Shown here in pieces: positions 4,419-55,620 of a DNA stretch of 64,000 bases. Within the stretch, counting starts at the first letter, position 1; every line of letters starts with the position of its first letter. The translations under genes and the position numbers were made by a program. The stretch covers positions 1,006,808 through 1,070,807 of the forward strand of contig CAVQXT010000007.1 of the NCBI GenBank assembly GCA_963717945.1, read 5' to 3'. This DNA is from an uncultured Acidobacteriota bacterium. GTDB lineage: Bacteria > Acidobacteriota > Vicinamibacteria > Vicinamibacterales > Fen-181. Under the pieces are notes generated by a model. The model did not search any database and was not told the DNA's origin. It saw only the letters and a list, made by a program, of their open reading frames with translations.

Positions 4419-6192
4419 ATGGAAGGCAGCGTGAGTCCCAGCCAGGGGTTCGGGACGTTCTTCAATCGGGTCCTCCTGGTTCTGATCGCCGTCGCGGCCC
4501 TGCTGAGGGGTGCGCTGGTCTTCCGCCTGAACATCGACGGGGACGAGTTCCGATTTCTGTCGCTCGTGTACCGAGTACCTGCGGGGCCAACTCGCCACCC
4601 CGCTGATGACGATCCACGTGTATCTGTTCCGGTGGCTCCCGGCGGTCTCGACCAACGAGGCGGACCAGGTTGTCGCCGCGCGGGTGGTGATGCTCGCGCT
4701 CGCGCTGGGCTCCGCGGTCCTCACGTACCTGATCGCGAGAAGCTGTCTCTCCCGCCCGGGGGCCTTGTTCGCCGCGCTCTGTTATCTCACCTTCTCGAAC
4801 GTCGTCGTCCACGGAGCCAGCTTCCGGTTCGACCCGATCTGCTCGTTCTTCTTCCTGCTCTCTCTCTGCCTGGTGCTTTCGGCGCGCACGCGCGGGGTCA
4901 CCGGGCTGATCCTGGCCGGCGCGTGCCTCTCCGTGTCGCTGCTGGTCAGCTTGAAGTCGGTCTTCTTGATTCCGACGGCGGCGATCGTGCTCGCCATCGT
5001 GGTCCGATTCGAACACGCGAAGGGCGGCTGGAGGCCCTGGGCCTGGTTCGGCGCGGGCTCGGTGCTGGTCTCGGTTCCGCTGCTCTGGCTGCACAGCGGG
5101 CGACTCCCGCGAGGCGCCGAGGGTGCGCCGGCGGCCGCCGGCCGCCTGGCCCACGCCGTGCTGGGCCAGGCCGGTTTCTTCCCCCAGTGGCGCTACCTGC
5201 TGCTCAGCGTCCTGGAGAACCCGCTCGTCTGGGTTCTGCTCGCGCTGGGACTGGCGATGACGGCCAGGCGGGTGTTCCCCGTGAGGAGCGCCGCGAAGCG
5301 GGACCTCCTGCTCCTGAGCTTCTCCCTTCCCCTGGCGTCGCTGTCCTTCTACGGCTACGCGTATCCGTACTTCATCGCGGCGGTCATCGCGCCGGCGGTG
5401 GTGTTCTGCGGGGTCGTGTTCGACAGGCTCTACTCGAGGATGGAGGAGCACCCCGGGCACGCGGTGTGGCTCCTGCTGTTCATCCAGGTGGTGTTCGGCG
5501 GTTTCCTCGTCCAGTACCTCGGCTACTCGAACGACGAGGTCTCCCCCCAGCGGCAGACGCTGCAGGTGGTCCACGAGCTGTTCCCGGAGCCCGTCCGCTA
5601 CATCGACTCGTGCTCGATGGTGTCAGCCTATCCGCAGGTCGGGCTCTTCATGACCTCGTGGGACCTGCAGAACTACTTCGACCGCGGAGAGCCGATCATG
5701 CGGGAGGTGCTGCGGCGCGAGGTGCCGGCGTTCCTCGTGGCAGACACGTATTACCTGGCTCTCGACCGGCCGTGGCGCGACACGCTGAACGGCGGCCGTC
5801 TCGGTCTGCTGCCCGGGGACTACGCGGTCTTGAGGGACAACTTCGTGCGTCACTGGGGAGCCCTCTACGTCCCCGGCAAGCGCGTGGACTTCGCCGCGGG
5901 CGAGGCGGAGAGAGACGTCGACATCCTGATTCCCGGCGTGTATACCCTGGAGGCGGAGGACGGGGTCAGGATCGGCGGGGTCCTCGTCCGACCGGGGCAG
6001 ACGGTGTGGCTGGAGAGCGCCAGGGTCACGATCTCGCCCGCGAGAGCGCCCACGACGATCGTGCTTCGCCGGGGGGACCACCTCCGGAGGCCGTCGGCCC
6101 CGCCGCCCGGCCAGCCGCTCTTCGACGGATACTACTGGCGTACGCAGCCCTTTCCCTCTCCCGAGGAGCGCCGCAGGACATGGTCGAACTGA
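4419..6192 (+). CDS. GT-C fold membrane glycosyltransferase (PMT_2/ArnT-like) with an apparent +1 frame break at ~4572
   Basis: ORF 4606..6192 is a polytopic membrane protein. The missing N-terminus (MEGSVSPSQGFGTFFNRVLLVLIAVAALLRGALVFRLNIDGDEFRFLSLVY: TM1 plus a DE loop motif) is in another frame at 4419-4571. Skipping C4572 joins ...LVY to EYLRGQLATPLMTIHVYLF. Confidence 0.7.
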
Positions 6193-6381
6193 ACCCGCGG
6201 ACGACAGGTCAATGGCCCGGGGGCTCCGACATGGTGGCCGAGCGTGCCTGAGCGTCTGGAACGTCCTGCCCGGACCGTGAAACGCGCCGCGCTCGGGATC
6301 GCGCACGAGCTTTCGCTGGCCAGGCTGCGCGTCGAGGCCTGGCTCGCCGCATCCGGCAAGCGGCCGCGCCCCCCACGGATC

Positions 6382-11533: not shown

Positions 11534-11584
11534 CCAACGCAGACGATCGGCAACGCTCGCTCCTCCTCGCCCCGCAACGACGCC

Positions 11585-12365: not shown

Positions 12366-13547
12366 ATGATCAGCATACGGGCGCAGGGACTCGGCAAGGC
12401 GTATCGCATTTACAAGCGGCCCTTCGACAGCTTGAAGGAACTGGTGCTCCGCCGCGAGTACTCCGAGACGTTCTGGGCGCTGCGCGACGTGTCGCTGGAA
12501 GTCGCCAGGGGCGGGTCGCTCGGCATCATCGGCGACAACGGCGCCGGCAAGTCCACGCTCCTCAAGCTGCTCGCCGGGGCGACGGCGCCGAGCGCGGGGC
12601 AGGCCGAGCGCAGCGGCCGGGTCTCGGCCATTCTCAGTCTCGGCGCGGGCTTCCACCCGGATCTGTCGGGCATCGAGAACATCCGGATCGGCTGCGCGAT
12701 TCTGGGGCTCTCGCCGGCAGAGACCGAGGTGCACCTGGCGGAGATCGTGGAGTTCTCCGAGCTGGGTTCGTTCGTGGAGCGCCCGGTGAGGACGTACTCC
12801 TCGGGCATGTACCTGCGGCTCGGCTTCTCGGTCGCCACCGCCGTGGCGCCACAGATTCTGATCGTTGACGAGCATCTCTCCGTCGGTGACCAGCACTTCA
12901 GACGCAAGTGCATGCGCCGCATCATGGCGTTGCGGGAGGCCGGCTGCACGCTCGTGTTCTGCTCGCACGACCTGCACGCGGTCCGGGAGGTGTGCGACCG
13001 CACGTTGTGGCTCCAGGCCGGCCGGCCGGCGATCCTGGCCGCCACGTCTTCGGCGATCGAAGCCTACCAGGATCACATCCGGGCCCGTGATGCGGAAGTC
13101 GAGGGGCCGGTCGGGAACCAGGAAGCGCCGCGCGACCACCCCGCGGACAACTACCTGACCGACGTGGCGCTTGGCGGCGACTGCCGGGACGGCCAGGTCG
13201 AGACAGGCGGAAAGCTCGAACTCCGGATTCTCGCGCGGCTGTCGCAAGCGGTATACCGCGACGGGGTCCACGTTGGATTGATCCTCGTCCGAAAGGACGC
13301 CGTCTGGTGCTATGGCGTCGCGACGAAGTGGGATGGCCTGTCTTCTGGATTGTACCCGAGGGGAGGCGATGACTATGGCGTGCGCTTCGTGGTGGATGCG
13401 CTGCCGTTACTGTCAGGTCAATACAGCTTTATCGTTGCGCTGATGGACGATCGCAGTCCGCACCTGTACGACACCTGGTCCAACGTCGCGGCCGTTCACG
13501 GTACAGCACGGCGGCAAGGAGGTCGGTGTCATGCGGATACCCCATAG
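12366..13547 (+). CDS. wzt: Polysaccharide ABC exporter ATPase (Wzt) with C-terminal glycan-binding domain; its true end is probably 13566 after a +1 frame break near 13494-13503
   Basis: ATG 12366 within ORF 12213..13547. Walker A GDNGAGKST, signature YSSGMYLRLGF, Walker B ILIVDE. The C-terminal ~150 aa are Wzt_C-like. See the finding for the frame break. Confidence 0.85.
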   Translation: MISIRAQGLGKAYRIYKRPFDSLKELVLRREYSETFWALRDVSLEVARGGSLGIIGDNGAGKSTLLKLLAGATAPSAGQAERSGRVSAILSLGAGFHPDLSGIENIRIGCAILGLSPAETEVHLAEIVEFSELGSFVERPVRTYSSGMYLRLGFSVATAVAPQILIVDEHLSVGDQHFRRKCMRRIMALREAGCTLVFCSHDLHAVREVCDRTLWLQAGRPAILAATSSAIEAYQDHIRARDAEVEGPVGNQEAPRDHPADNYLTDVALGGDCRDGQVETGGKLELRILARLSQAVYRDGVHVGLILVRKDAVWCYGVATKWDGLSSGLYPRGGDDYGVRFVVDALPLLSGQYSFIVALMDDRSPHLYDTWSNVAAVHGTARRQGGRCHADTP

Positions 13548-13562
13548 ATGGGATCGCCCGGA

Positions 13563-14738
13563 ATGACGTTCACACCTGGCGATGGAGGGTGTCGACCCTA
13601 TGACATCGTTATTGTCGGGACCGGCCCCGCCGGGTCGGCATTCGCCCGGTCAGTGAGGCGGGCAGCCCCGCACCTCCGGATCCTCGCGATTGAGGAGAAC
13701 CCCCATCCCAGAGACAAGGTCTGCGGCGGCGCGCTGACCTACCGTGCCTTGCCGCTCGTGCGGACGCTCTTTCCAGAGGTCGGCTCCATTCCCACGACGA
13801 GCTTCACCAGGGAGTATCGGCTCTGCTTCCCCAACGGTCGGAGCGTTGCTCGAGGCGACGGCGAGTTCGCCGTCGTCTGTCGGCGCGTGTTCGATGAGGC
13901 CCTGTGGAATGCGGCGCGATCGGATGGCGTGGAGACGCTCGAGGATGCTCGCGTCACCGGGCTGCTGCGGAGCGCCGGACGGGTCACCGGCGTCTGCGTG
14001 GAGCGGCGGTCGGCACGTTGGAACGTCGAGTGCAGGATGGTCGTGGGAGCGGACGGGTCGACGAGCGTCGTGCGACGGTGCACGGGGAGCGGACCATCAC
14101 GCAGCCGAGGAGCAGCCGTCCGACAGTTCATGCGTGGCGTCGAGCCGGCGGCCCGGGCACTTGTGTTCCTCGTCGATCCGGGGTGTCATGGGTATCTCTG
14201 GATCTTCCCCTTCGAGTCGGAGGGGGAGCGGTGGGCCAACGTCGGGTACTTCTGCCATACCGGGCGAGGCGTGGACCCTCGAGGGCGGTATGCGTCGATG
14301 CGGCAACATGCGGTTGCGAGACGATACTTGACTGGCGCGACCGAGGTCACGCCGCTGGAGGGCTTTCCTCTGAACCTGGCCCGAACGCACCGGGGCCGAC
14401 TTGTGCTCGATCGGCGGGTCACCGGCCCCGGGTACGTGCTCGTCGGCGACGCGGCAGGATTGGCGCATCCCGATACAGGCGAGGGAATCGCGTTTGCCTT
14501 GCACTCGGGGAGGATCGCCGGCGAGCTGGCGGCGGAGTCGCTCGACGCGGCCACGTGGGGACCGGCGTACGAACGTCTGGCTGTCCGATTCGCCCAGGAC
14601 GCAGATCCTACGGGGTTGCTGTCGTTCGTGTTCCGAGTCCCGGGCGCGTTGCCCCCCCTGGCCAGGGACTTGTATATGCGTCTGTTGCCATGGTGGCTGA
14701 ACAGGCGGCAAGGAGAGCGCGCGGCATGGCCAGCCTGA
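13563..14738 (+). CDS. FAD-dependent oxidoreductase, geranylgeranyl-reductase family
   Basis: ORF 13548..14738. YDIVIVGTGPAGSAF (dinucleotide fold) and RDKVCGGAL. Start is ATG 13548 or ATG 13563; the latter makes an ATGA overlap with the frame-corrected wzt stop. Confidence 0.75.
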   Translation: MTFTPGDGGCRPYDIVIVGTGPAGSAFARSVRRAAPHLRILAIEENPHPRDKVCGGALTYRALPLVRTLFPEVGSIPTTSFTREYRLCFPNGRSVARGDGEFAVVCRRVFDEALWNAARSDGVETLEDARVTGLLRSAGRVTGVCVERRSARWNVECRMVVGADGSTSVVRRCTGSGPSRSRGAAVRQFMRGVEPAARALVFLVDPGCHGYLWIFPFESEGERWANVGYFCHTGRGVDPRGRYASMRQHAVARRYLTGATEVTPLEGFPLNLARTHRGRLVLDRRVTGPGYVLVGDAAGLAHPDTGEGIAFALHSGRIAGELAAESLDAATWGPAYERLAVRFAQDADPTGLLSFVFRVPGALPPLARDLYMRLLPWWLNRRQGERAAWPA

Positions 14739-16340
14739 GCAAAGAGCTTATCGAAGAGTACAACCGGACCCGTGGCGAGGACGTCGATCGGAGCGTCCTC
14801 TGCCACGCGCCGTTCACGAGCATGAACTTCGAGCAGACGGGCAAGGCCAGCGCCTGCTGCTACAACAGGACCCACGTCTTCGGCGAGTATCCCAGGGACA
14901 GCGTCGAGCAGATGTGGTTCGGCGCGGCGGCGGAACAGCTCCGGAACGACATCCGCCAGGACAGTCTCGAGGGCGGCTGCAGCATGTGCAAGCGGCAGCT
15001 CGAGAGCGGCAACCTCGCCGGCTGCAAGGCCAGGATCTACGACCAGTACGCTCAGGGAACGCCGGAGCAGGGAAGCAGAGTCCTCACGTTGCCATCGCCC
15101 GCGCGGGCCGTTGCGATGCCCAGGGTGATGGAGTTCGAACTCGAGAATACCTGCAACCTCCAGTGCATCATGTGCGACGGGTTCTTTTCCTCGGCGATTC
15201 GCAGACACCGCGAGAAGCAACCGCCTCAGCACAGGCCGTACGACGCCGATTTCGTGAAGCAGCTCGCGGAGTTCATGCCGCATCTCGAGGAGATGAAGTT
15301 TCTCGGCGGCGAGCCGTTCATGATCGGGATCTACTACGACATCTGGGAGCAGGTGGCGCGCGTCAACCCCGGCGTGAAGATCCACATCACGACGAACGCG
15401 ACCACGCTCAACCCGCGCACGAAGACGCTGCTCGAGAAGATGAGGGGGGCGGGGTTGAGGTGTACCTTCTGCGTCTCGATCGACTCGGTGCGGAAGGAGA
15501 CCTACGAGGCGATCCGGGTTGGCGCCTGCTACGAACAGGTGATGGAGAACATCGCGTGGCTCTCGGACTACGCGATGAAGCGGAACGCCTCTCTCGGCTT
15601 CGCCGTCTGCCCGATGGCCATCAATCGGTTCGAGATGCCAGACCTCGTAAGGTTCGCGAGCGAGAGGGGCATCGTCGTGACCTACAACACGGTGCTGAAG
15701 CCGCCCGAGCAGGCGTTGCGCTTCCTGAACCATGAGGAACTCGATGAGCTGATCGCGAACTACGAGAGCCGCATGCCAACACACGGCTCACCGATCGGCA
15801 AGATCAACCTCGACTACTTCACGGGCTACGTGAACCAGGTGAGGGCGTGGAGGGACGAAATCGAGAAACCCAGTGATCAGATGGCCGAGCTCAGGCGCAT
15901 CGACCCGTCATCCCGCCCGCAGGCGCCGGAACTGACGCGGAAGATCCTGCTGGCCAGCATCATCGGAGCCGGCGGCCGGCGGGACCGGCTGCCGCCGGAC
16001 CCCGAACTGGACGGTGTGACGCCGGAAGACTTCCGGGGCTACCTCTGCGCGAAGCTCTCCGAGACTGCGCCGGAGCAGTTCTGGGACGCCTACCTCGCCT
16101 GCCTCGACTGGGTCGCTTCGGAATGCCTGCCGCCGGCCGAGTACCGAGGAGTTTCGGCGCAAGTGGGACGCGCTCCTGAAGATCGCGGTGGGCCTCGTCG
16201 CGAGCGCGAAACTCGCAATACTCTCAGACCTGCTCCGGGGCGATGTGGTCGCGCACCTGCGTTTCATTCTGGCCACGGACATCGCCGTCATCGTGGGGGG
16301 ACTTCATCGGTACGAGAAGTCACCCGCGTCTCACCCCTGA
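14726..16340 (+). CDS. Radical SAM enzyme with an N-terminal SPASM-like Cys cluster; apparent +1 frame break at ~16145
   Basis: ATG 14726 (RBS AGGAGAG) inside ORF 13904..16987. CNLQCIMC (CX3CX2C). The N-terminal region is LCHAPFTSMNFEQTGKASACCYN...GGCSMCKRQ. After 16145 the called frame turns R/G/P-rich, while the +1 frame gives EEFRRKWDALLKIAVGLVASAKLAILSDLL... and stops at 16338-16340. Confidence 0.75.
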
Positions 16341-16493: not shown

Positions 16494-18665
16494 ATGAAGA
16501 CGGTCATCGTGACGCCAGAACTGGCCGGGCTTTGCCCTCAGGGGGGCATCGGGTCATTCGCCTGGCATCTGTCCCGGCTCCTGCGGTCGGTGGGGGAGGA
16601 GGTGACGGTTCTGCTCACGGGACGAGCCCGCCCCGCCCGGATGCGCTGGGCGGGTCGGTACGAAGGGGCGGGCATCGACGTGCGCACGGTCAGCCCGAGG
16701 GCCTTCCCTCCGAACACGATCGGGGCATGGGATTTCGTCGGTCGCGGACATGCCGTCGCGGATGCGATCCCGGGCGACGCCGATGTGGTCTATTTCCAGG
16801 ATTGGCTGGCAGACGGATTCGTTCCGGTTCGCATGAGGCGATTGCAGAGGAGGCGGCACCCTGTGTTCGTGAACGTCCTGCACAGTCCGACGGCCTGGAT
16901 CCGCGAGGCCATGGCCGAGTATCCGCGCCACGTGCTCCACGACATGAGCCTGGATTTCGCCGAGCGCTACGTCGCCGAGCACGTTGACTTCATTGCCTCG
17001 CCGAGTCAGTACATGCTCAGGTTCGTATCGGACCAGGGCTGGCAGTTGCCGGATTCGGATCGTACTGCGGTGCTTGGTTACCCGATTGTGCCGGACTCGA
17101 CGCCACCTGGTGCGCCCAGCTCGTCGCGACCGGGCGAGTTTCGCCGCATCGCGTTTCTCGGGAGATTCGAAGTCAGGAAGGGCACGGGGCTTTTCGTCGA
17201 TGCCCTGCGTCAGCTTCACCGCCGGCGGCCGGAGCTCCTGGACTCGATCGAGGAGATCGCCTTCGTCGGCCGGGAGGGAAACACCGGCGATCTCTCACCG
17301 CGACGCGCGGCGAACCGGCTGTCTTCGCTGCGCGCGCGGATTCGGTTCCTGAGCCGTCTGGACACAGAGGAGGTTCAGGCCCTCCTGCGATCCTGGGCAC
17401 ACGACACGCTGGTGGTGGTTCCCAGCCTCGACGACAACTACCCTTACGTCGTGATCGAAGCGTCGCTCGTTGCCGGCTTGCATGTCATCTGCTCGAACGC
17501 GGGCGGCATGCGCGAGATTCTCCTGCCCGCGGCCGGCGACCAGTTCTTCGACCCTTCCGAGCGGTCTCTCGGCGACGCTCTCGCGCGGTACCTGGCATCC
17601 GGTCCGCGTTCTCAGGCGGGACTGCATCCATATGACTGGAATCGCCACAACCGGGAGTGGCTCGATTTTCACGACCGGGTCCGGCGCGCCAGAGAGCCGC
17701 AACCGGGCGCCCTCGCCGTCTCCAGCAGGCCGACCCGGCACGTGGACGTCTGCATTCCCTTCTTCAATCACGGGGCATACCTGCCGGCGTTGCTCGAAGC
17801 GCTGGCGAACCAGACGCTGTCGGCGGGCTCGGTCACGGTGGTCGACGACGGTTCAACCGACGGTGAGTCGCAGCGCGTTCTTGCTGAGATGGGAAGCAAG
17901 TATGCCGACCGGAACTGGCGCTTCGAGGCCTCGGCGGTCAACAGGGGCGTCAGCGCCGCCAGGAACGCCGCGGCCTCGAAGGGGCATGCCGAGTACCTGC
18001 TGTTCCTCGACGCCGACAACGTGCCCGTTCCCCACATGGTCGAGCGGTTCCTGTCGGCCATCGAGGATTCCGGCGACGACTGCCTGACCTGCTACTTCCG
18101 TGCCTTCGAGGGCAGGCACGCTCCGTTCGAACGGGCCACCGAAGAGGCGGGGAAGTGCGCCATCCGCCAGGTCGTCCCCACCAGGTACGATTTCCTGCCT
18201 CTCGGACCGTGTCTCCCGCTCGGGCTCTTCGACAATTTCTTCGGAGACGCCAATTTCATCGTTCGACGATCGGTCTTCGAAGCCCTCGGAGGGTTCTCCG
18301 AGGAGCCCGAATACCGGTACGACACCCACGAGGATTACGAGTTCCTGCTGCGGCTCATCCTCGCGGGAAAGACCCTGGATGTGGTGCCGGAGGTCCTGTT
18401 CTTCTACCGAGTCACCGGGAGCGGCCTCATGGGGACGACGAGCGAGTACCGGAATCGCCTGCGCGTGCACCGGGCTTACGCCGCGCTCCTGCAGAACGCG
18501 GGCCTGCCCGGCCTCGTGCCGTACGTCTACGGCCTGTACGAGAGGGGCAAGCCGCTGGAGTTCCTGGTGGCTGAAGCGCGACGGGCGCTCCGTCATCCGC
18601 TCGCGGCCGCCGCGACGATCGGTCGGGCGGGGCTGCGGACCCTGTGGAAGCGGTTCGACGGCTGA
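16494..18665 (+). CDS. Bifunctional glycosyltransferase (N-terminal GT4/GT-B + C-terminal GT2/GT-A)
   Basis: ORF 16494..18665. The N-terminal half is GT-B-like. The C-terminal half reads VDVCIPFFNHGAYLPALLEALANQT...VVDDGSTDGES...LFLDADN (GT2 DxD). Confidence 0.8.
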   Translation: MKTVIVTPELAGLCPQGGIGSFAWHLSRLLRSVGEEVTVLLTGRARPARMRWAGRYEGAGIDVRTVSPRAFPPNTIGAWDFVGRGHAVADAIPGDADVVYFQDWLADGFVPVRMRRLQRRRHPVFVNVLHSPTAWIREAMAEYPRHVLHDMSLDFAERYVAEHVDFIASPSQYMLRFVSDQGWQLPDSDRTAVLGYPIVPDSTPPGAPSSSRPGEFRRIAFLGRFEVRKGTGLFVDALRQLHRRRPELLDSIEEIAFVGREGNTGDLSPRRAANRLSSLRARIRFLSRLDTEEVQALLRSWAHDTLVVVPSLDDNYPYVVIEASLVAGLHVICSNAGGMREILLPAAGDQFFDPSERSLGDALARYLASGPRSQAGLHPYDWNRHNREWLDFHDRVRRAREPQPGALAVSSRPTRHVDVCIPFFNHGAYLPALLEALANQTLSAGSVTVVDDGSTDGESQRVLAEMGSKYADRNWRFEASAVNRGVSAARNAAASKGHAEYLLFLDADNVPVPHMVERFLSAIEDSGDDCLTCYFRAFEGRHAPFERATEEAGKCAIRQVVPTRYDFLPLGPCLPLGLFDNFFGDANFIVRRSVFEALGGFSEEPEYRYDTHEDYEFLLRLILAGKTLDVVPEVLFFYRVTGSGLMGTTSEYRNRLRVHRAYAALLQNAGLPGLVPYVYGLYERGKPLEFLVAEARRALRHPLAAAATIGRAGLRTLWKRFDG

Positions 18666-20660: not shown

Positions 20661-21859
20661 ATGATCGACCCCGTCGAACGTGCCGCCCGCGAAATGCGCA
20701 ACCAGGCGAAAGTCGTGGCGGTGGTCATGTGGGCGGCGTTCGCGCTCAACTGGGCCGACCCCCACGCTTGTGGATCGCTATCTCGGGGGGCGTCAAAGGC
20801 GCTGACTTCGTTCAGTTCTACAGCCTGGCCACCGCGAGTCGGTTACATGACTTTGCCGCCCTCACATCGTCCCGTGAGCTGCACATCGTGCAGGCCAGGG
20901 CCGTCCCGCAGGCCGTCGGGGACAACTTCCCCGCAGTGTACCCACCGCAGGTCGGGCTTGCGCTCCAGCCGCTCGCGTTCTTCTCGTACCCGGTCGCCCT
21001 CGCACTGTGGACCCTGCTGACCTGGGCTCTTTACGGCACGGCTACCTGGCTTCTCTGGAGGTGCTGCCCGCGCCTGCGGCCGTACGGCCGGACAGTCGCG
21101 TGGGTGGCATGCGCATTCCCGGCGTTCTGGTGGCTCGTCACGACCGGCCATCTGTCTGCAGTGGCGTTGGGAGCGCTGGCGCTGGCCTGCCTTGCCCTGG
21201 ACCGGAAACGGTCCTGGCTGGCCGGGTGCGCCATCGGGTTGCTGGCATACAAATGGACGCTGCTGCTTCCGGCTGTCGCGGTTTGCCTCCTTGCCGGTGA
21301 ATTCACGATGCTGCTGGGCGCCGCGGCCGTCACCGCAGGCCAACTCGGCCTCGCGGTGCCGTTTGTCGGCCTGGACGGCGTCCGCCAGCACTTTGTCACG
21401 ATGTTCGACTTGAGTCGAACGCCGGATGTGCTGGCCGCCAAGCCATACATGATGTACTCGCTGCGTACCTTCTGGGCGACCCTCGTGCCTGACCGTCTCG
21501 CGGTCGTCCTGTATCTCGCCTCGGCGCTGTGCGTCTTGATCGTGGCCGCTCGCGCGTGGCGTCGAACTTCGTCAGCAACAGGCCGCGTCGGGCTCCTGGC
21601 CTGCGCGGTCGTGCTGGCGACGCCGCACTTGTTTGCGTACGACCTCGTGGTCCTCGTCCCGGCGATCCTGCTCGCGGCAGACACGGCCCTGGCGCTGCCA
21701 CGCGGAAGCGCCGCGAGGACGATGCTGACTCGAACGAACCATGCCGTGTTCTTCGTGATGTTGTTCAGCCTTGTGGCCGCGGTGGCGCGGATTCAACTCG
21801 CCACCCCGCTGCTATTCTTCTGGCTCGTTCTGCTCGCCCGTTCCGTCCGCCTCCGTTGA
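20661..21859 (+). CDS. DUF2029/GT87-like polyprenol-phosphate-dependent membrane glycosyltransferase; apparent -1 frame break at the C5 run 20759-20763
   Basis: ORF 20528..21859 carries the core (GADFVQFYSLA plus many TMs). The N-terminal TM segment MIDPVERAAREMRNQAKVVAVVMWAAFALNWADP lies in the frame of ORF 20628..21020. One extra C in the run would join ADP-PRLWIAISGGVKGADFVQFY. Confidence 0.65.
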
Positions 21860-23338
21860 CGCTGGGCCGACCGGCGTCGGTGCGGGCAAGGGAGGCCCGC
21901 CGGCCCCCGGCGCACGTTCCGGCTTCATGGAGAATCGGCGGATTTCAACCGGCGCGTCCTCGGCGCCGAGCCATATCCCCAGGCTTGCGCGGTCGTCGTC
22001 TTCTGCCGCGGCGAAGCTGAGGTCCATCACCGTCCACCGGTCCGTCAGCACCAGCTCCTCGCGCAATCCCAGCGAGTGCCAGGGCGCATGGTCCTGCCAC
22101 AGCCCCACCGCCACCCGGCGCAGGCGCTCCGCTCGAATCTCCAACTCCACTTGGTATCGACGGCAGGCGGAGACCGAACCACAGGGCCGCGTCAGGCGCA
22201 CGTCCCACGGCTGCCCCCCGGGCCGCGGGATCACCAAGCGGACGACGCCCGGGTTCCCCCGCTCGACACGGGCTTCGGCCCCATCGTCCAGGTGCAATTG
22301 CCCGCGGCAGATCAGCCAGATTCGAAGTTGTCCTGCAAACCGCCAGAGTTCACGCACCCGCCGCTGGTAATTGCCTTGAAAGAGCAGCACCTGAACCACC
22401 GGCAGGGGCGCGAGCGACGGAGAACGCCAGGCGCACTGCAGCGCCAGAATCAGCGGCAGGTAGCATTCGTAAAAGGGGTGGCTGAAGCGCCACCATTCGA
22501 TCGCGGCCGCCTCCCCCCGCTCGTGGACGTAGTAATTCCAATTGTGAGCGACCTTCGTCCGAACCATCGCGACGTACAGCGCGGCGCCGGCCGCCAGCAG
22601 TGGGCTCAGGCGAACCAGAGAGACCAGGAGCGCGAGGAACGCCGCCAGTTCGGCGGCGTAGACTCGATTCACCAGGATGCGGGTTCGGGACCGGCCCAGC
22701 CCGGTGGCCAGCGTCGAGACCCCCGCCTGCAAATCGCCGGCGCGGTCCTGGAATTCGTGGATGATGATTCCCTTGATGCCCAGACCGAGCGACCAGATCG
22801 CCCCGCATGCGGGAAACAGCCACCACCACGGGCCGGCGCCCGAGTGCGCCGTCCCGGCGCTGGCGAGCACCGAGATGGTGTAGAGGCAGGGCACGACGTG
22901 CGCTCCCAGGGTGTCGCACAGCACGCCGGCGACGCCGCGCTCCTTCAAGCGAAGTGGTGGAGCCGAATAAATCGTCGGCAGCAGATACTCGACGGCGAGC
23001 AAGCCGAGACTCAGCCGCGAATAGTGGAACAAGGCGGCGGGAGCGAAGCCCAGCGCCAGCGCCACCGCGCAGCCCGCGTATTTCTGCCAGGAGGGCAGCC
23101 GGCTGAGGGAGTTCTCCTTTCCCGTCCGACGGTCGGCCTCGATGTCGAACAGGTCATTGATGAGATGCCCGTAGGAACCCGCGCACAGCCCCACGAAGAG
23201 GATCAGGCCGATGCACCCCGCGGCAGCCGCCGGAGGAACATCGTACAGGAGCACCGAGGCGTAGCAGAAGGCGAGAACCGGCGGGATCTTGGAATCCCAC
23301 CAGTTGTCGGTCCGTGCTAACTCTCGCAGCGAGGGCAT
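21812..23338 (-). CDS. UbiA-family prenyltransferase fused to a C-terminal CBM-like beta domain
   Basis: ORF 21812..23458, with the likely start at ATG 23338 (MPSLRELARTDNWWDSKIPP). HLINDLFDIEADRRTGKEN (NDxxDxxxD). The C-terminal ~200 aa are soluble (GQPWDVRLTRP...YQVELEIRAE...VAVGLWQDH). It overlaps the convergent GT87 gene by 48 nt. Confidence 0.7.
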   Translation of the reverse strand: MPSLRELARTDNWWDSKIPPVLAFCYASVLLYDVPPAAAAGCIGLILFVGLCAGSYGHLINDLFDIEADRRTGKENSLSRLPSWQKYAGCAVALALGFAPAALFHYSRLSLGLLAVEYLLPTIYSAPPLRLKERGVAGVLCDTLGAHVVPCLYTISVLASAGTAHSGAGPWWWLFPACGAIWSLGLGIKGIIIHEFQDRAGDLQAGVSTLATGLGRSRTRILVNRVYAAELAAFLALLVSLVRLSPLLAAGAALYVAMVRTKVAHNWNYYVHERGEAAAIEWWRFSHPFYECYLPLILALQCAWRSPSLAPLPVVQVLLFQGNYQRRVRELWRFAGQLRIWLICRGQLHLDDGAEARVERGNPGVVRLVIPRPGGQPWDVRLTRPCGSVSACRRYQVELEIRAERLRRVAVGLWQDHAPWHSLGLREELVLTDRWTVMDLSFAAAEDDDRASLGIWLGAEDAPVEIRRFSMKPERAPGAGGPPLPAPTPVGPASTEADGTGEQNEPEE

Positions 23339-32967: not shown

Positions 32968-34152
32968 ATGAACGAACCGAAGCGACTTCTCCTCACGGGC
33001 GGCGGCACGGCCGGTCACGTGAACCCGGCCCTCGCCATCGGCCGGGCCGTGGCGGGCGCGAGCACGCGCGTGCTGTTCGTCGGCGTGCGCGGCCGGGCCG
33101 AGGCCACCATCGTGCCGCGGGAGGGGATTCCGATCCGCTTCGTCCGGGCGTCGGGCTTTCCCGGCGGCCGCCCGTCGATGGCGCTCGCCCGGTTCTTCGC
33201 GAACCTCGCAATCGGCTTCTGCCAGGCCTGCGTGATCGTGCTGACGTTCCGGCCGACGGTCATCGTCGGCACCGGAGGGTTCGCGTCGGCGCCGGTGATG
33301 TTCGCGGCGGCGTTCCTCCGAAGGCTCGGGCTCAGCCGGGCGCGCCTCTACGTCCACGAGCAGAACGCCGAGCCCGGCAAGCTCAACCAGGTGGCGGGCC
33401 GGCTGGCCGATCGGGTCTTCGTGACCTTCCCCGAGACGCTGCGGCGCTTTCCGGGAAACGGCGTGCTCGCGGGCTATCCGCTGCGCCGGCGCATCGCGGC
33501 CGTCGATCGCGAGCAGGCGAGGGCCCGGCTCGATTTCGTGATTCCTCCGGGCCGCCAGGTCGTGTTCGCCTTCGGCGGCTCGCAGGGGGCTCGCACCATC
33601 AACCGCGCGGTCGTGGACGCGCTCGGCGACCTGATCCCCCAGAAGGACCGCCTGTTCGTCGTGCACGGCACGGGCCTTTTCAAGGGCGCGGGCTACGACG
33701 CCGGCGCGGATACGAAGGCGAGGCTCGAGTCGGTCTACACGGAGGCGGAACGGCGCGAGATCGAGTCGTTCTACGTCAGCCGCCCGTTCTTCTACCAGAT
33801 CGAAGACGTGTACGCTCTGGCCGACCTGGTCGTCACGCGGGGCGGGGCGGGCAGCCTCTACGAGATTGCCTCGCTCGGCTTGCCGGCGATCGTCATCCCG
33901 AAGGCGAACCTGCCGGGCGACCACCAGGTGATGAACGCGCGCGCCATGGCCCGATGCGGCGGCGCGGTGGTGATCTACGAGGGCGCCAGCCTGGCGGGCG
34001 GACGGATCGACGAGCGGGTGGACGGCCGGACGCTCGCCGCCGCGATCACCAGGCTGCTCTCCGACGAGCGCGCGCTCGCCGCGATGGCGCAGCGCAGCCG
34101 CGCGTTCAGCCAGGCCGACGCCGTGAGCGTGATCGAGCGGTGCATCAAAGGG
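32968..34152 (+). CDS. murG: MurG-like GT28 glycosyltransferase; there is no in-frame stop, and it appears to continue by a +1 shift into the HEAT ORF
   Basis: Part of the 2057-aa ORF 29953..36126. MNEPKRLLLTGGGTAGHVNPALAIGRAV...FGGSQGARTIN...VVTRGGAGSLYEIASLGLPAIVIP. Alternative start ATG 32929. Confidence 0.7.
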
Positions 34153-34189
34153 CGCGGATGCCGCGGGGAACGCCGCCCGGCCGGCCGTC

Positions 34190-35023
34190 GTGCAGGCGAA
34201 CGGCGAAATGCGCGGCGCGCCGGCGATCGAGGCGCTACCGTCCAACGACGTGCTGCTCGGGCGCCTGGAACGGGCGCTGGCCGCGCGCGGGGCCGCGTAC
34301 CGGCCCGACGACGTCGTCACCGCGCCCGGCGATCGCGCGTACTTCGTCAGCCGCGCCGCCCTGCTGCTGGCGAGGACCTCGTGGGAGCGCCGCAACGTCG
34401 GCGTCAAGCTGCTCGGCCTGCTCAAGGCGCGCGAGGGAGTGCCGCTGCTGCTGGCCCTGCTGGCCGACAAGCGTCCGGCGCCCCTCATCAAGCGGATGCT
34501 CGGCGGCGACTACGAGCAGGTGGGCTTCATCCGGCGCAACATCGTGACCGCGTTCGGCCGGATCGGGGACCCTTCGCCCGAGGTGGAGGCGGCGCTCGTC
34601 GCGGCGTTCGAGGATCCCTACTACGAAGTGAGAGCCGAGGCCGCGCGGGTGTCGGCCCGGCTGGCGGCCGGCTTCCGGGACCGCGACGCCCTGGTGGCCG
34701 GCCTGAAGCGCCTGCTGCCCGATCGCTGGCTCGAAGTGGCGGCCGCCGCGGCGCGGGCGCTGGGCGAGGTGGGGTCGGAGCGCGACGCGCTCCCGGCCCT
34801 GCTCGCGCTCAAGGACGCGCGGTTCTGGCACGTGCGGGCCGCCGCGCTCGAGGGGCTGCTGTCGCTCGTCGAGCGGGGGGAGGGCGGCGACCCGAACGCG
34901 CTGGTCGCCGGCCTGGGCGGCTTCGTCCTCACCTCGACCGACTTCAAGCCGGAATTCGAGATCAAGCGCCTGTACGGCCGGCTGCTGAAATCGGTGGCCG
35001 ACCGCGAAGGAGGCGAGCGGTGA
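34190..35023 (+). CDS. HEAT-repeat protein (probably the C-terminal domain of the MurG-like protein)
   Basis: ORF 34190..35023; the frame is open from 34133. It contains repeated ...VRAEAARVSARL..., WLEVAAAAARALGEVG and WHVRAAALEGL. Confidence 0.6.
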   Translation: MQANGEMRGAPAIEALPSNDVLLGRLERALAARGAAYRPDDVVTAPGDRAYFVSRAALLLARTSWERRNVGVKLLGLLKAREGVPLLLALLADKRPAPLIKRMLGGDYEQVGFIRRNIVTAFGRIGDPSPEVEAALVAAFEDPYYEVRAEAARVSARLAAGFRDRDALVAGLKRLLPDRWLEVAAAAARALGEVGSERDALPALLALKDARFWHVRAAALEGLLSLVERGEGGDPNALVAGLGGFVLTSTDFKPEFEIKRLYGRLLKSVADREGGER

Positions 35024-36126
35024 TCTACCTGATCGGCGCGCTGGTGCACTCGCGGGTCGGCGCGTTCGGCCTGCTGCGCCTCTCGGAATACCTGACCATT
35101 CGGGCGATCGGCGCCGCGCTCACGGCGATCGTCCTCATGCTCATCGTCACGCCCCGCTTGATCTGGTACCTCCACCGGCGCGGCGTGGTGGACCAGTTGC
35201 GCGACACCGGCGTGCCGTCGGCGTTCGACAAGGCCGGGACGCCGGTGATGGGCGGCACGGTGATGATCGCGTGCATCATCATCGGGACGTTGCTGTGGTG
35301 CAACCTGGCCAGCCGCTACGTGCTCACGGTGCTGGTGGCCCTGGTGTGGTTCGGCGCGATCGGCCTGGTGGACGACGTGGCGAAGTGGAAGACGGGGTCC
35401 GGCAACTCCGGCATGACCGAGGCGATGAAGCTCGTGCTCCAGGGCCTCTTCGCCGCCGGGTTCGTGCTGCTGCTGGCCAGCCCGTACTCGCCGCTGCCGG
35501 CGTCGCAGGCGACGACGCTCTACGTGCCGTTCCACAAGTTCCCCATCGCGCGGTCGGCGATGATCTACCTGCCGTTCGTGTTCGTCTTCGTGATGCTCGT
35601 CGGCAACGCCGTGAACATCACCGACGGCATGGACGGCCTGGCGATCGTACCGTCGGTGTTCGTCGTCGGCGTGCTCGGGTTCTTCGCCTACATCATGGGG
35701 AACGCCATCTGGGCGAAGTACCTCTTCTACCCGCTGCTCAAGGACGCCGGCGAGCTGATCGTCTTCTGCGCGGCGTTCGCGGGCGCGGGGATCGGCTTCC
35801 TCTGGTATAACGCCTACCCGGCCCAGATCTTCATGGGGGACGCCGGGTCGCTGGCGATCGGCGGCTGCATCGCCACCATCTCGGTCCTGCTCAAGCAGGA
35901 GGCGCTGTTCCTCATCCTCGGCGGCCTGTTCGTCGTCGAGGCGGCCACGTCGCAGATCCAGGACAAGATCGGCATCAAGTGGCTCGGGCGCCGGCTGTTC
36001 TACCGGGCGCCGTTCCACCACCAGATGCAGCACACCGGCCTGGCCGAGACCAAGGTGGTCATCCGGCTCTGGATTATCTCGGGGATGCTGGCCCTGGCGG
36101 CGCTGGCGACGGTCAAGTTGCGCTAG
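35020..36126 (+). CDS. mraY: MraY-like phospho-sugar:polyprenyl-phosphate transferase
   Basis: GTG 35020 (GTGA overlap with the HEAT stop), in the frame of ORF 29953..36126. KAGTPVMGG, NAVNITDGMDGLA, FMGDAGSLAIGG, APFHHQMQ. Confidence 0.8.
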   Translation: MIYLIGALVHSRVGAFGLLRLSEYLTIRAIGAALTAIVLMLIVTPRLIWYLHRRGVVDQLRDTGVPSAFDKAGTPVMGGTVMIACIIIGTLLWCNLASRYVLTVLVALVWFGAIGLVDDVAKWKTGSGNSGMTEAMKLVLQGLFAAGFVLLLASPYSPLPASQATTLYVPFHKFPIARSAMIYLPFVFVFVMLVGNAVNITDGMDGLAIVPSVFVVGVLGFFAYIMGNAIWAKYLFYPLLKDAGELIVFCAAFAGAGIGFLWYNAYPAQIFMGDAGSLAIGGCIATISVLLKQEALFLILGGLFVVEAATSQIQDKIGIKWLGRRLFYRAPFHHQMQHTGLAETKVVIRLWIISGMLALAALATVKLR

Positions 36127-54124: not shown

Positions 54125-54241
54125 AGTTCTCGAAATCGACGGGGAGCGCCGGCGCTCCCGATCGCCTTCCCTACGCCGGTACTACCCGGTTCAGGTTCGA
54201 GGGTGTGATCTCAGGCCGTAGTCTTTGGCCACCCCTAGGCG
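54125..54241 (-). promoter_or_regulatory. TPP (THI-box) riboswitch plus expression-platform hairpin
   Basis: The minus strand reads CGCCU-AGGGGUGGCC...CCUGAGAUCACACCCUCGAACCUGAACCGGGUAGUACCGGCGUAGGGA-AGGCG (aptamer 54241->54163), then GGGAGCGCC/GGCGCUCCC followed by GUCGAUUUCG. Confidence 0.85.
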
Positions 54242-54288
54242 TCCTGCCAGGCATCAGTGTGGCGCAGGGAGCCGGCAGAGTCAACGGC

Positions 54289-54483: not shown

Positions 54484-55620
54484 ATGTCCCCCGTGAAGCT
54501 CGACGATCTCCCCACGCCCGCGCTCGTCGTCGACGAAGACCGGATGGCCCGGAACATCGACCGAATGCGACGGCGCCTGTCCGACCTCGGCGTCGGCTTT
54601 CGACCTCACGTCAAGACCGCAAAGAGCATCGAGATCTCCCGCCGACTGATGCCGACGGCGCACGGCCCGATCACCGTGTCGACGCTCAAGGAGGCCGAGC
54701 AGTTCTTCGCCCATGGCGTCACCGACGTGCTGTACGCGGTGGGCATCGAACCGGGGAAACTGACCCACGTTGCTGACCTGAGGGCACGCGGTTGCGACCT
54801 GACGGTGATCCTCGACAGCGTCGAGGCGGCGGCCGACGTCTCGGCGTTCTGCGCCGCAGGGCGGTGCGAGATCCCGGCGTTGGTCGAGATCGATTCGGAC
54901 GGCCACCGTGGCGGCGTGAAGCCCGATTCGGACGGCCTGCTCGGCGTGGCCGCCGCCCTGAAGTCGGGCGCCCGCTGTCGCGGAGTGATGACACACGCCG
55001 GCGCCTCCTACGACTGTCGATCCACCGACGCCATCGCCGCCATGGCCGAGCAGGAGCGCGCCGCCGTCGTGGGCGCGGCCGCGCGGCTTCGGGCCGCGGG
55101 CCACGACGCTCGAATCGTCAGCGTCGGGTCCACGCCGACGGCCACCTTCGCGCGAAACCTCGCCGGCGTCACCGAGGTGCGCGCCGGGGTATTCGTGTTC
55201 CAGGATCTCGTCATGGCGGGCCTCGGCGTCTGCGCGATCGAGGAGATTGCGCTCTCGGTGCTCGTGAGCGTCATCGGGCACCAGCGCGAGAAGGGCTGGA
55301 TCGTCACCGACGGCGGATGGATGGCCGTGTCGCGCGACCGCGGCACGGCGGGGCAGCCGATCGACCAGGGCTACGGCCTCGTGCGCGACGCGGACGGCCG
55401 GCTGCTCGAGTCCCTCGTCATGCACGGCGCCAACCAGGAGCACGGCCTGCTGTCGCGCCGGGACGGCGGCCCGCTCGACTGGGAGGCGTTCCGCATCGGA
55501 CGGCGGCTGCGGATCGTGCCCAACCACGCCTGCGCCACGGCCGCCCAGCACGCCGAGTACTTCGTCGTCAAAGGCTCTCGCGAGGTCGTCGCCCGCTGGG
55601 AGCGGTTCGGAGGATGGTGA
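54484..55620 (+). CDS. PLP-dependent D-threonine aldolase / D-serine dehydratase-like (alanine racemase N-domain family)
   Basis: ORF 54484..55620. LPTPALVVDEDRMARNIDRM...FRPHVKTAKS (PLP Lys) ...RIVPNHACATAAQH. Confidence 0.7.
   Translation: MSPVKLDDLPTPALVVDEDRMARNIDRMRRRLSDLGVGFRPHVKTAKSIEISRRLMPTAHGPITVSTLKEAEQFFAHGVTDVLYAVGIEPGKLTHVADLRARGCDLTVILDSVEAAADVSAFCAAGRCEIPALVEIDSDGHRGGVKPDSDGLLGVAAALKSGARCRGVMTHAGASYDCRSTDAIAAMAEQERAAVVGAAARLRAAGHDARIVSVGSTPTATFARNLAGVTEVRAGVFVFQDLVMAGLGVCAIEEIALSVLVSVIGHQREKGWIVTDGGWMAVSRDRGTAGQPIDQGYGLVRDADGRLLESLVMHGANQEHGLLSRRDGGPLDWEAFRIGRRLRIVPNHACATAAQHAEYFVVKGSREVVARWERFGGW

Follow-up and report, generated by a model that had tools for sequence, protein, structure and literature searches.

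A one-base frame break in a GT-C glycosyltransferase gene of an Acidobacteriota polysaccharide cluster is very probably an artefact of Nanopore-only assembly

Introduction

When a single supernumerary base splits a gene that is otherwise conserved, the base may be real and the gene inactivated, it may be real and bypassed during translation, or it may exist only in the assembled sequence. This question arises for a gene near the beginning of the 64,000-nucleotide stretch of DNA analysed here (the window; G+C content 69%). The gene sits in an ABC-transporter-dependent (Wzm/Wzt) polysaccharide cluster, together with GT4 genes, a GT4-GT2 fusion and a gene for a radical SAM/SPASM enzyme. A first-pass annotation made from the letters of the DNA had described the gene as a GT-C glycosyltransferase split by a +1 frame break at C4572, and had pointed to an identical heptamer at a second break, in the radical SAM gene. 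Here we ask whether the gene is broken in the organism or in the assembly, and what the shared motif means.

Results

The gene is interrupted by one base at 4571/4572

Translation of frame 3 from the ATG at 4419 to position 4571 on the forward strand gives MEGSVSPSQGFGTFFNRVLLVLIAVAALLRGALVFRLNIDGDEFRFLSLVY, the first 51 codons of the GT-C gene, which according to the translation and an alignment of 14 homologues take in a short cytoplasmic tail, transmembrane (TM) helix 1 and the beginning of external loop 1, with D42-E43 inside DGDEF (window 4542-4547, 5' of the break). Beyond 4571 the same frame continues, in line with the first-pass annotation, as an R/P/G-rich read-through; its first stop is found only at 6251. 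Frame 1 is open from 4531; from 4573 onward it encodes EYLRGQLATPLMTIHVYLFRWLP... and ends with the stop at 6190-6192. This second part (4573-6192, forward strand; 539 codons plus stop) holds the rest of the membrane module and a C-terminal beta-rich domain, as indicated by its translation, the Pfam PMT_2 profile and homologues that are 81-88% identical. A seven-state Viterbi scan of codon-position base composition, which was blind to the finding, placed a frame switch at 4571/4572. Because the upstream frame meets no stop for 1677 nt after the switch, and the first start codon of the downstream frame lies 34 nt past it, with none before 4606, the switch is a frame break and not a gene boundary.

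The Viterbi switch and the comparison of related contigs both locate the break to the CC dinucleotide at 4571-4572 (forward strand), in which one C is supernumerary (GTG TAC C GAG TAC). With one of the two dropped, the product is a 590-aa protein whose alignment with intact homologues runs through the junction without a gap, which bears out the proposed one-base break at C4572. A gene caller would report only a shortened 528-aa ORF (4606-6192, forward strand; ORF list), and the same shortened ORF has been called in contig_48878 (P0001) and contig_53951 (P0005). A product started at M4606 would be devoid of TM1 and of the invariant Asp-Glu pair.

The fused product resembles GT-C glycosyltransferases

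A search of a large protein collection returned 19 relatives of the fused protein, the family being small in databases. Four of them, P0002 and P0003 (590 aa) and P0004 and P0006 (576 aa), are uninterrupted with the junction LSLVYEYLRGQL; they read ...FRFLSLVYEYLRGQL... across it, and the junction stretch in all four is ...RLNIDGDEFRFLSLVYEYLRGQLGTPLMT.... The homologues carry the N-terminal segment and do not begin at the equivalent of M4606, and D42, E43, L47 and G56, all four of which we place upstream of the break, are invariant in 14 full-length homologues. The TM helix and D/E motif that had been proposed for the N-terminus are thus part of the conserved protein.

The fused protein matched the profile PF13231 (PMT_2) over residues 82-223 with 32.4 bits against a cut-off of 26.1, and most homologues carry a precomputed PMT_2 domain. 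Solved structures searched with the sequence gave no match to the GT-C protein. The AlphaFold2 model considered here is that of the homologue P0003 (83% identical), not of the window fusion; it has a pLDDT of 81 and a pTM of 0.83 and combines a membrane module of about 13 helices with a beta-rich C-terminal domain; its N-terminus consists of a helix (9-36), a loop and a second helix (41-54). When this model was compared with the PDB using Foldseek, nearly all of the top ~30 matches were GT-C enzymes (E-values down to 3e-7), including AglB (3wak), ArnT (5f15), STT3 (6s7o), Pmt4 (9i5k), EmbC (7bvh), ALG9 (9s6u) and also PglB, at an identity of just 10-15% and TM-scores of about 0.5. Profile match and modelled fold both agree with the first-pass assignment of the gene product as a GT-C (PMT_2/ArnT-like) glycosyltransferase, which is sound. 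The presence of GT4, Wzm/Wzt and GT2 genes nearby is suggestive of a possible polyprenyl-phosphate-linked sugar donor, used on the outer face of the membrane.

The extra C is found in three related contigs

The window is 99.2-99.4% identical to contig_48878, 92.6% identical to contig_53951 and about 88% identical to contig_64530, all from ENA assembly ERZ25039489, and about 88% identical to contig_25773 from ERZ25039480. With W for the window, they group as ((W, c48878), c53951) versus c25773 and c64530. Two cousin contigs are deposited at NCBI as uncultured Acidobacteriota MFD01872.bin.1.270 and MFD01476.bin.1.216 and belong to the Microflora Danica long-read catalogue, a Nanopore-only resource assembled with Flye and one Medaka round (r1041 model) without short-read polishing; short-read metagenomes of its samples served for binning (PMC12313526). 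From the 99.4% sibling, likewise a Microflora Danica MAG, and these cousins we infer that the window itself stems from a Nanopore-only soil metagenome assembly. R10.4 consensus sequences become near-finished only from about 40x coverage, and soil ONT assemblies are rich in frameshift-truncated proteins (PMC9262707, PMC13087279). Further relatives comprised two more Nanopore contigs (L016, L017), three JGI metagenome contigs presumed to be short-read (L009, L010, L015), two other JGI contigs (L012, L014) and one Logan contig (L013); L012 holds the whole cluster intact, and L013 and L014 carry identical proteins. Scans of metagenome and genome collections (two loci each) brought up no close relative sequenced with short reads at more than 90% identity.

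The extra C at 4571/4572 is shared by the window, contig_48878 and contig_53951, and is lacking wherever the next codon is GAA (contig_25773, contig_64530, L015, L016 and L017) and also in L009 and L010, which read TAC GAG. A collapsed assembly edge common to contig_48878 and contig_53951 was considered as the source of their agreement and dismissed, since nearby positions differ between the two.

Frame breaks are widespread in the Nanopore contigs and absent from the short-read contigs

We then took a census of frame breaks over the 12-kb cluster by tblastn of the L012 proteins against each contig. All five Nanopore contigs were broken, at positions that mostly differ: the window in the GT-C gene, the Wzm start, the Wzt tail and the radical SAM gene; contig_48878 in the GT-C gene and many times in the radical SAM gene near the contig end; contig_53951 in the GT-C and Wzm genes; contig_25773 in the Wzt and radical SAM genes; and contig_64530 in almost every gene. 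L012, L013 and L014 had none, and no frame breaks were found in the short-read GT-C homologues. In L016 and L017 the GT-C gene is broken at positions other than 4571/4572. When the five contigs were aligned over 12 kb (window positions up to 16400), 36 single-base indel events were counted, the majority seen in one contig only. Besides the GT-C break, the window has at least five others, two of which are absent from its 99.4% sibling contig_48878. An additional G at 11539 (Wzm start) and another at 13490 (Wzt tail) occur in neither contig_48878 nor any other contig; further breaks lie at 20767, where a GT87 gene has a C5 run, and at 34149, in AAAGGG at the end of murG. That breaks are frequent in the Nanopore contigs and missing from the short-read contigs favours an assembly artefact, as do the intact homologues with the exact junction.

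The same 8-mer recurs at two breaks in the radical SAM gene

The 8-mer at the GT-C break, GTACCGAG, also occurs exactly, and in the same codon phase, at a second +1 break near the C-terminus of the radical SAM/SPASM gene (16141-16148, forward strand; Viterbi switch 16144/16145). The body of this gene (14726-16144) is in one frame and its tail (16146-16340) in the next, and fusing the two gives a 537-aa protein that can be aligned over its full length with the intact P0020-P0023. At this site the window reads TAC CGAG GAG, contig_64530 TAC CGAG GAC and contig_53951 TAC CAG GAG, while contig_25773 and L012-L014 have an in-frame TAC CGA GAC; the comparison with contig_48878 stops 79 nt short of it. 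The extra base is therefore present in the window and contig_64530 and absent in contig_53951 and contig_25773, and by comparison with the relatives it is a G (16146 or 16148/9) and not necessarily a C. The earlier observation of a shared TACCGAG heptamer thus held, and extends to the full 8-mer, but the inserted base need not be the same at the two sites. A third break on GTACCGAG, at the equivalent of window position 16311, is confined to contig_25773 (TAC CGAG AAG), where the window has TAC GAG AAG and contig_53951 TAC CAG AAG. After GTAC, then, the contigs variously carry GAG, CAG or CGAG.

TACCGAG occurs three times in the window against 3.75 expected on both strands, and from this count we estimate the probability of two independent breaks falling on it by chance at roughly 1e-4, which makes coincidence very unlikely. 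The third copy in the window, at 18405, is simply read in frame as TTC TAC CGA GTC (FYRV). Set against the grouping of the contigs, the distribution of breaks requires two independent events at the second site and one more at the third; such repeated events at GTACCGAG imply a process that is linked to the motif and recurs, not simple inheritance. Together with the in-frame TAC-CGA-G of the short-read relatives and of position 18405, the motif pattern points to a recurrent, context-linked consensus error and not to an inherited mutation or a frameshift signal. GTAC was weakly enriched as an indel hot spot (3 of the 36 single-base events versus a background of 1.4%, p = 0.014), by a count criterion that missed two events set one base off by MAFFT. 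A deterministic basecalling error at TACGAG or GTACGAG was discarded, as 28 TACGAG and 9 GTACGAG stand intact in the window. These intact GTACGAG copies include GAG TACGAG contexts, and in the aligned relatives GTACGAG and GTACCAG likewise stand intact at other sites; the local 7- to 9-mer by itself hence does not determine any systematic error. The recurrence may be caused by DNA modification at or near GTAC or by a mixed-strain pile-up. In connection with the latter, we weighed whether C and G alleles of mixed strains could give 'CG', since contig_53951 has CAG versus GAG or CGAG elsewhere; such alleles leave unexplained why all three sites follow GTAC.

Discussion

Taken together, our data make it very probable that the extra C at 4571/4572 is a consensus artefact of the Nanopore-only assembly, that it is absent from the real DNA and that the gene is intact in the organism. 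The gene would then encode a normal full-length 590-aa GT-C enzyme in a polysaccharide cluster of a soil Acidobacteriota, made by ordinary translation, in which the rest of the membrane module follows on from TM helix 1 and the invariant Asp-Glu pair in external loop 1. The extra C would arise as a basecalling or polishing error that appears to be linked to its context, with GTAC followed by GAG, CAG or CGAG acting as an indel and substitution hot spot among related Nanopore contigs; such a hot spot would account for the same 8-mer at the radical SAM break. The 'split gene' of the first-pass annotation is consequently correct for the assembly and probably not for the organism: the Nanopore-only relatives, the contig-specific breaks and the in-frame use of the heptamer elsewhere favour a plain assembly error. 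Several observations count against an artefact, namely that the extra C lies outside a long homopolymer, that GTACGAG is called intact elsewhere, and that the C was called independently in three contigs, among them two populations only 92.6% identical; these three form one clade, which fits a real inherited insertion.

Such an insertion, inherited from the ancestor of the window, contig_48878 and contig_53951, would leave either a pseudogene or a 528-aa fragment translated from M4606. Besides the clade formed by the three carriers, this explanation draws on the fact that surface-polysaccharide clusters do decay or vary among strains, and on a dN/dS of 0.52 between the window and contig_53951 in the body of the gene that is somewhat above the 0.33-0.36 obtained in comparisons with the intact contig_25773. 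The value of 0.52 (47 synonymous and 70 non-synonymous differences) nevertheless falls significantly short of 1 when the site counts are compared by chi-square, and the N-terminal 51 codons gave 0.46. Once the C is removed, the ORF is open over 590 codons in 3/3 carriers, without a stop or other indel despite about 7% nucleotide divergence, and within the TM1 and DGDEFRFLSLVY segment 5' of the break the changes between the window and contig_53951 are synonymous only. An ORF that is open in full and constrained on both sides of the break makes a long-standing pseudogene unlikely, and a fragment from M4606 would lose the invariant D42-E43. Moreover, the motif breaks at the radical SAM site clash with the relatedness of the contigs, so that inheritance offers no explanation for them, and the same logic would turn wzm, wzt, murG and other genes of the window into 'pseudogenes'. 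We thus regard an inherited inactivating insertion as improbable. That the extra base is real but bypassed by programmed +1 frameshifting at UAC-CGA-G, with full-length protein being made, appears highly improbable. As proposed, tRNA-Tyr would occupy the P site, the fairly rare CGA the A site, and tRNA-Glu would read the +1 GAG, as in Ty3. In keeping with this, GTACCGAG stands at three frame breaks, distributed over two genes and each time in one and the same codon phase, a one-base skip at the first site gives V-Y-E-Y exactly as in the homologues, the ORF is still under purifying selection, and CGA is a minor codon for Arg, with 5.1 uses per 1000 versus 34 for CGC. Against it, tRNA-Tyr is unable to re-pair on ACC by the anticodon rules. 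At window position 18405, at the radical SAM site of contig_25773 and in L012-L014, TAC-CGA-G belongs to the zero frame, and of the 94 in-frame CGA codons in the window about 20 are followed by G. Short-read orthologues need no shift, and neither the JGI and Logan contigs nor four other Nanopore contigs have the extra C. In the radical SAM gene the extra base fits best as a G that follows CGA, an event unlike that at the GT-C site.

Features that might assist such a shift were searched for at both window sites. No GGAGG-like or other Shine-Dalgarno-like element was present within 15 nt upstream of either, and shuffled sequences fold as well as the flanking RNA does (z -0.5 and -0.9 downstream, +1.6 and +1.1 upstream). 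With its 94 in-frame uses CGA is minor without being exceptional, and the idea that it is an unassigned or very rare codon was rejected. A special tRNA was rejected as well: the sole tRNA prediction in the window, an ARAGORN tRNA-Arg(TCG) at 55072-55145 on the reverse strand, lies inside a coding region and has no Rfam tRNA counterpart, and is taken to be a false positive. A broader version of the frameshifting idea, in which UAC-CGA-G is a shift-prone heptamer of this Acidobacteriota lineage and one-base insertions that create it are tolerated through +1 movement over the minor CGA codon, seems to us equally improbable. Were it true, it would constitute a sense-codon, Ty3-like +1 recoding signal in bacteria, on which two or more genes of a surface-polysaccharide cluster would rely, and a confirmed CC in GTGTACCGAGTAC would make the site a candidate for such a bacterial sense-codon +1 frameshift signal.

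Returning to the consensus artefact, the finding is an ordinary one, the gene being most likely intact in the organism, but it would have consequences for the use of these data. The public Microflora Danica MAG records list a 528-aa protein lacking TM1 and the catalytic Asp-Glu, and the same cluster would hold several other falsely split genes, so that frameshifts have to be taken into account when gene content or pseudogenes are tallied from such MAGs. That GTAC(C)GAG recurs over independently assembled contigs hints at a context- or modification-linked Nanopore error.

With regard to known systems, the window protein is comparable to the PMT_2, ArnT, PMT and STT3-AglB enzymes, lipid-phosphate-sugar-dependent glycosyltransferases of the GT-C class, in its PMT_2 profile and, judged from the model of the homologue P0003, in the combination of a membrane module with a C-terminal soluble domain. 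PMT enzymes bear a DE motif in loop 1, and the invariant Asp-Glu after TM1 in the family of the window protein is in a similar position. It differs in that no solved structure matches it at the sequence level, and the fold alignments of P0003 stay at 10-15% identity. Programmed +1 frameshift sites are represented by bacterial prfB (CUU UGA C) and yeast Ty3 (GCG AGU U). As in these, a +1 shift in the window would bring back a conserved ORF, a minor codon occupies the A site and a heptamer is common to the sites. In contrast to prfB and Ty3, the window sites have no P-site codon competent for re-pairing and no stop codon in the A site, they lack a Shine-Dalgarno-like stimulator or RNA structure as well as conservation among orthologues, and their heptamer is tolerated in frame. 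The classic Nanopore indel artefact concerns a long homopolymer, whereas here it is a CC dinucleotide that recurs in three independently assembled contigs, and the extra base, unlike in the classic case, accompanies the 8-mer GTACCGAG at each of three sites. What the locus shares with the Nanopore artefacts that the IDEEL test measures is, besides a Nanopore-only source catalogue, that a contig-specific one-base indel splits an ORF which is intact in relatives and which short-read assemblies present without the split.

A frame break in the radical SAM/SPASM gene and possibly unstable base calls after GTAC

The radical SAM/SPASM gene of the polysaccharide cluster (window 14726-16340) is broken near its C-terminus, at 16144-16146, where the window reads GAG TAC CGA GGA G. 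When the two parts were fused into a conceptual protein of 537 aa, intact homologues aligned with it from end to end. At the break itself, the relatives have either TAC CAG GAG or TAC CGA GAC, and hence a G is the best placement for the extra base. Within the same gene, comparison with contig_53951 also revealed two compensating one-base indels at window 15455-15464, separated by 9 nt; since together they restore the frame, a short stretch of radical SAM residues around these positions may be wrong.

In the radical SAM gene of the relatives, we found that contigs disagree at two positions after GTAC (11421 and 11589 in L004, the cluster locus of contig_53951; 11595 in L005; 11425 in L006, the locus of contig_64530). 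Here, contig_53951 carries CAG (Gln) and the other contigs carry GAG, CGA or a frameshifted CGAG, a pattern which suggests that these Nanopore assemblies do not call the base following GTAC in a stable manner. The consensus of contig_64530 is very noisy: throughout the locus we counted approximately 20 private one-base insertions in 12 kb, at non-homopolymer positions, and these break up almost every gene of the cluster. Low coverage or a mixture of strains is perhaps responsible.

Single-base insertions in the Wzm and Wzt genes

Two further extra bases were found in the window only. An extra G at 11539, shared neither by the 99.4%-identical sibling contig_48878 nor by any other contig compared, deprives the Wzm ABC-2 permease of its initial residues; in the relatives, the permease gene overlaps the stop of the 885-aa glycosyltransferase gene. 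Another extra G, at 13490, places the final ~24 codons of the Wzt ATPase in a different frame, as seen in tblastn, where query residues 1-376 matched in one frame and 376-399 in another. Downstream of Wzt, in window 13496-14724, no clear sign of coding emerged from a frame scan. In contig_53951, wzt and the radical SAM gene are separated by a 387-aa FAD-binding gene. Compared with the window, contig_48878 has 126 nt inserted at 14714.

Other apparently interrupted genes and RNA features in the window

A GT87-family membrane glycosyltransferase gene (window 20661-21860) is apparently split near 20760-20767, where five Cs follow one another (GACCCCCAC). With one C added, the remainder of the protein is fused to a TM helix at the N-terminus (MIDPVERAAREMRNQAKVVAVVMWAAFALNWADP); this break looks like a homopolymer-type error. 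The region comprising murG and a HEAT-repeat ORF (window 32968-35023) is broken near 34144-34153. Skipping one base at ATCAAAGGGC yields a conceptual murG-HEAT product of 684 aa with the N- and C-terminal Pfam Glyco_transf_28 domains and HEAT_2, and in its own frame murG meets its first stop only at 36124. The fusion may be native to this lineage, or the true murG stop may have been lost through an error.

ARAGORN called a tRNA-Arg(TCG) on the minus strand at 55072-55145; this is probably a false positive, because the hit is antisense to a GC-rich coding segment in which it lies and has no tRNA counterpart in Rfam. A TPP riboswitch (Rfam RF00059) was detected on the minus strand at 54151-54246, with a score of 63 bits that exceeds the gathering score.
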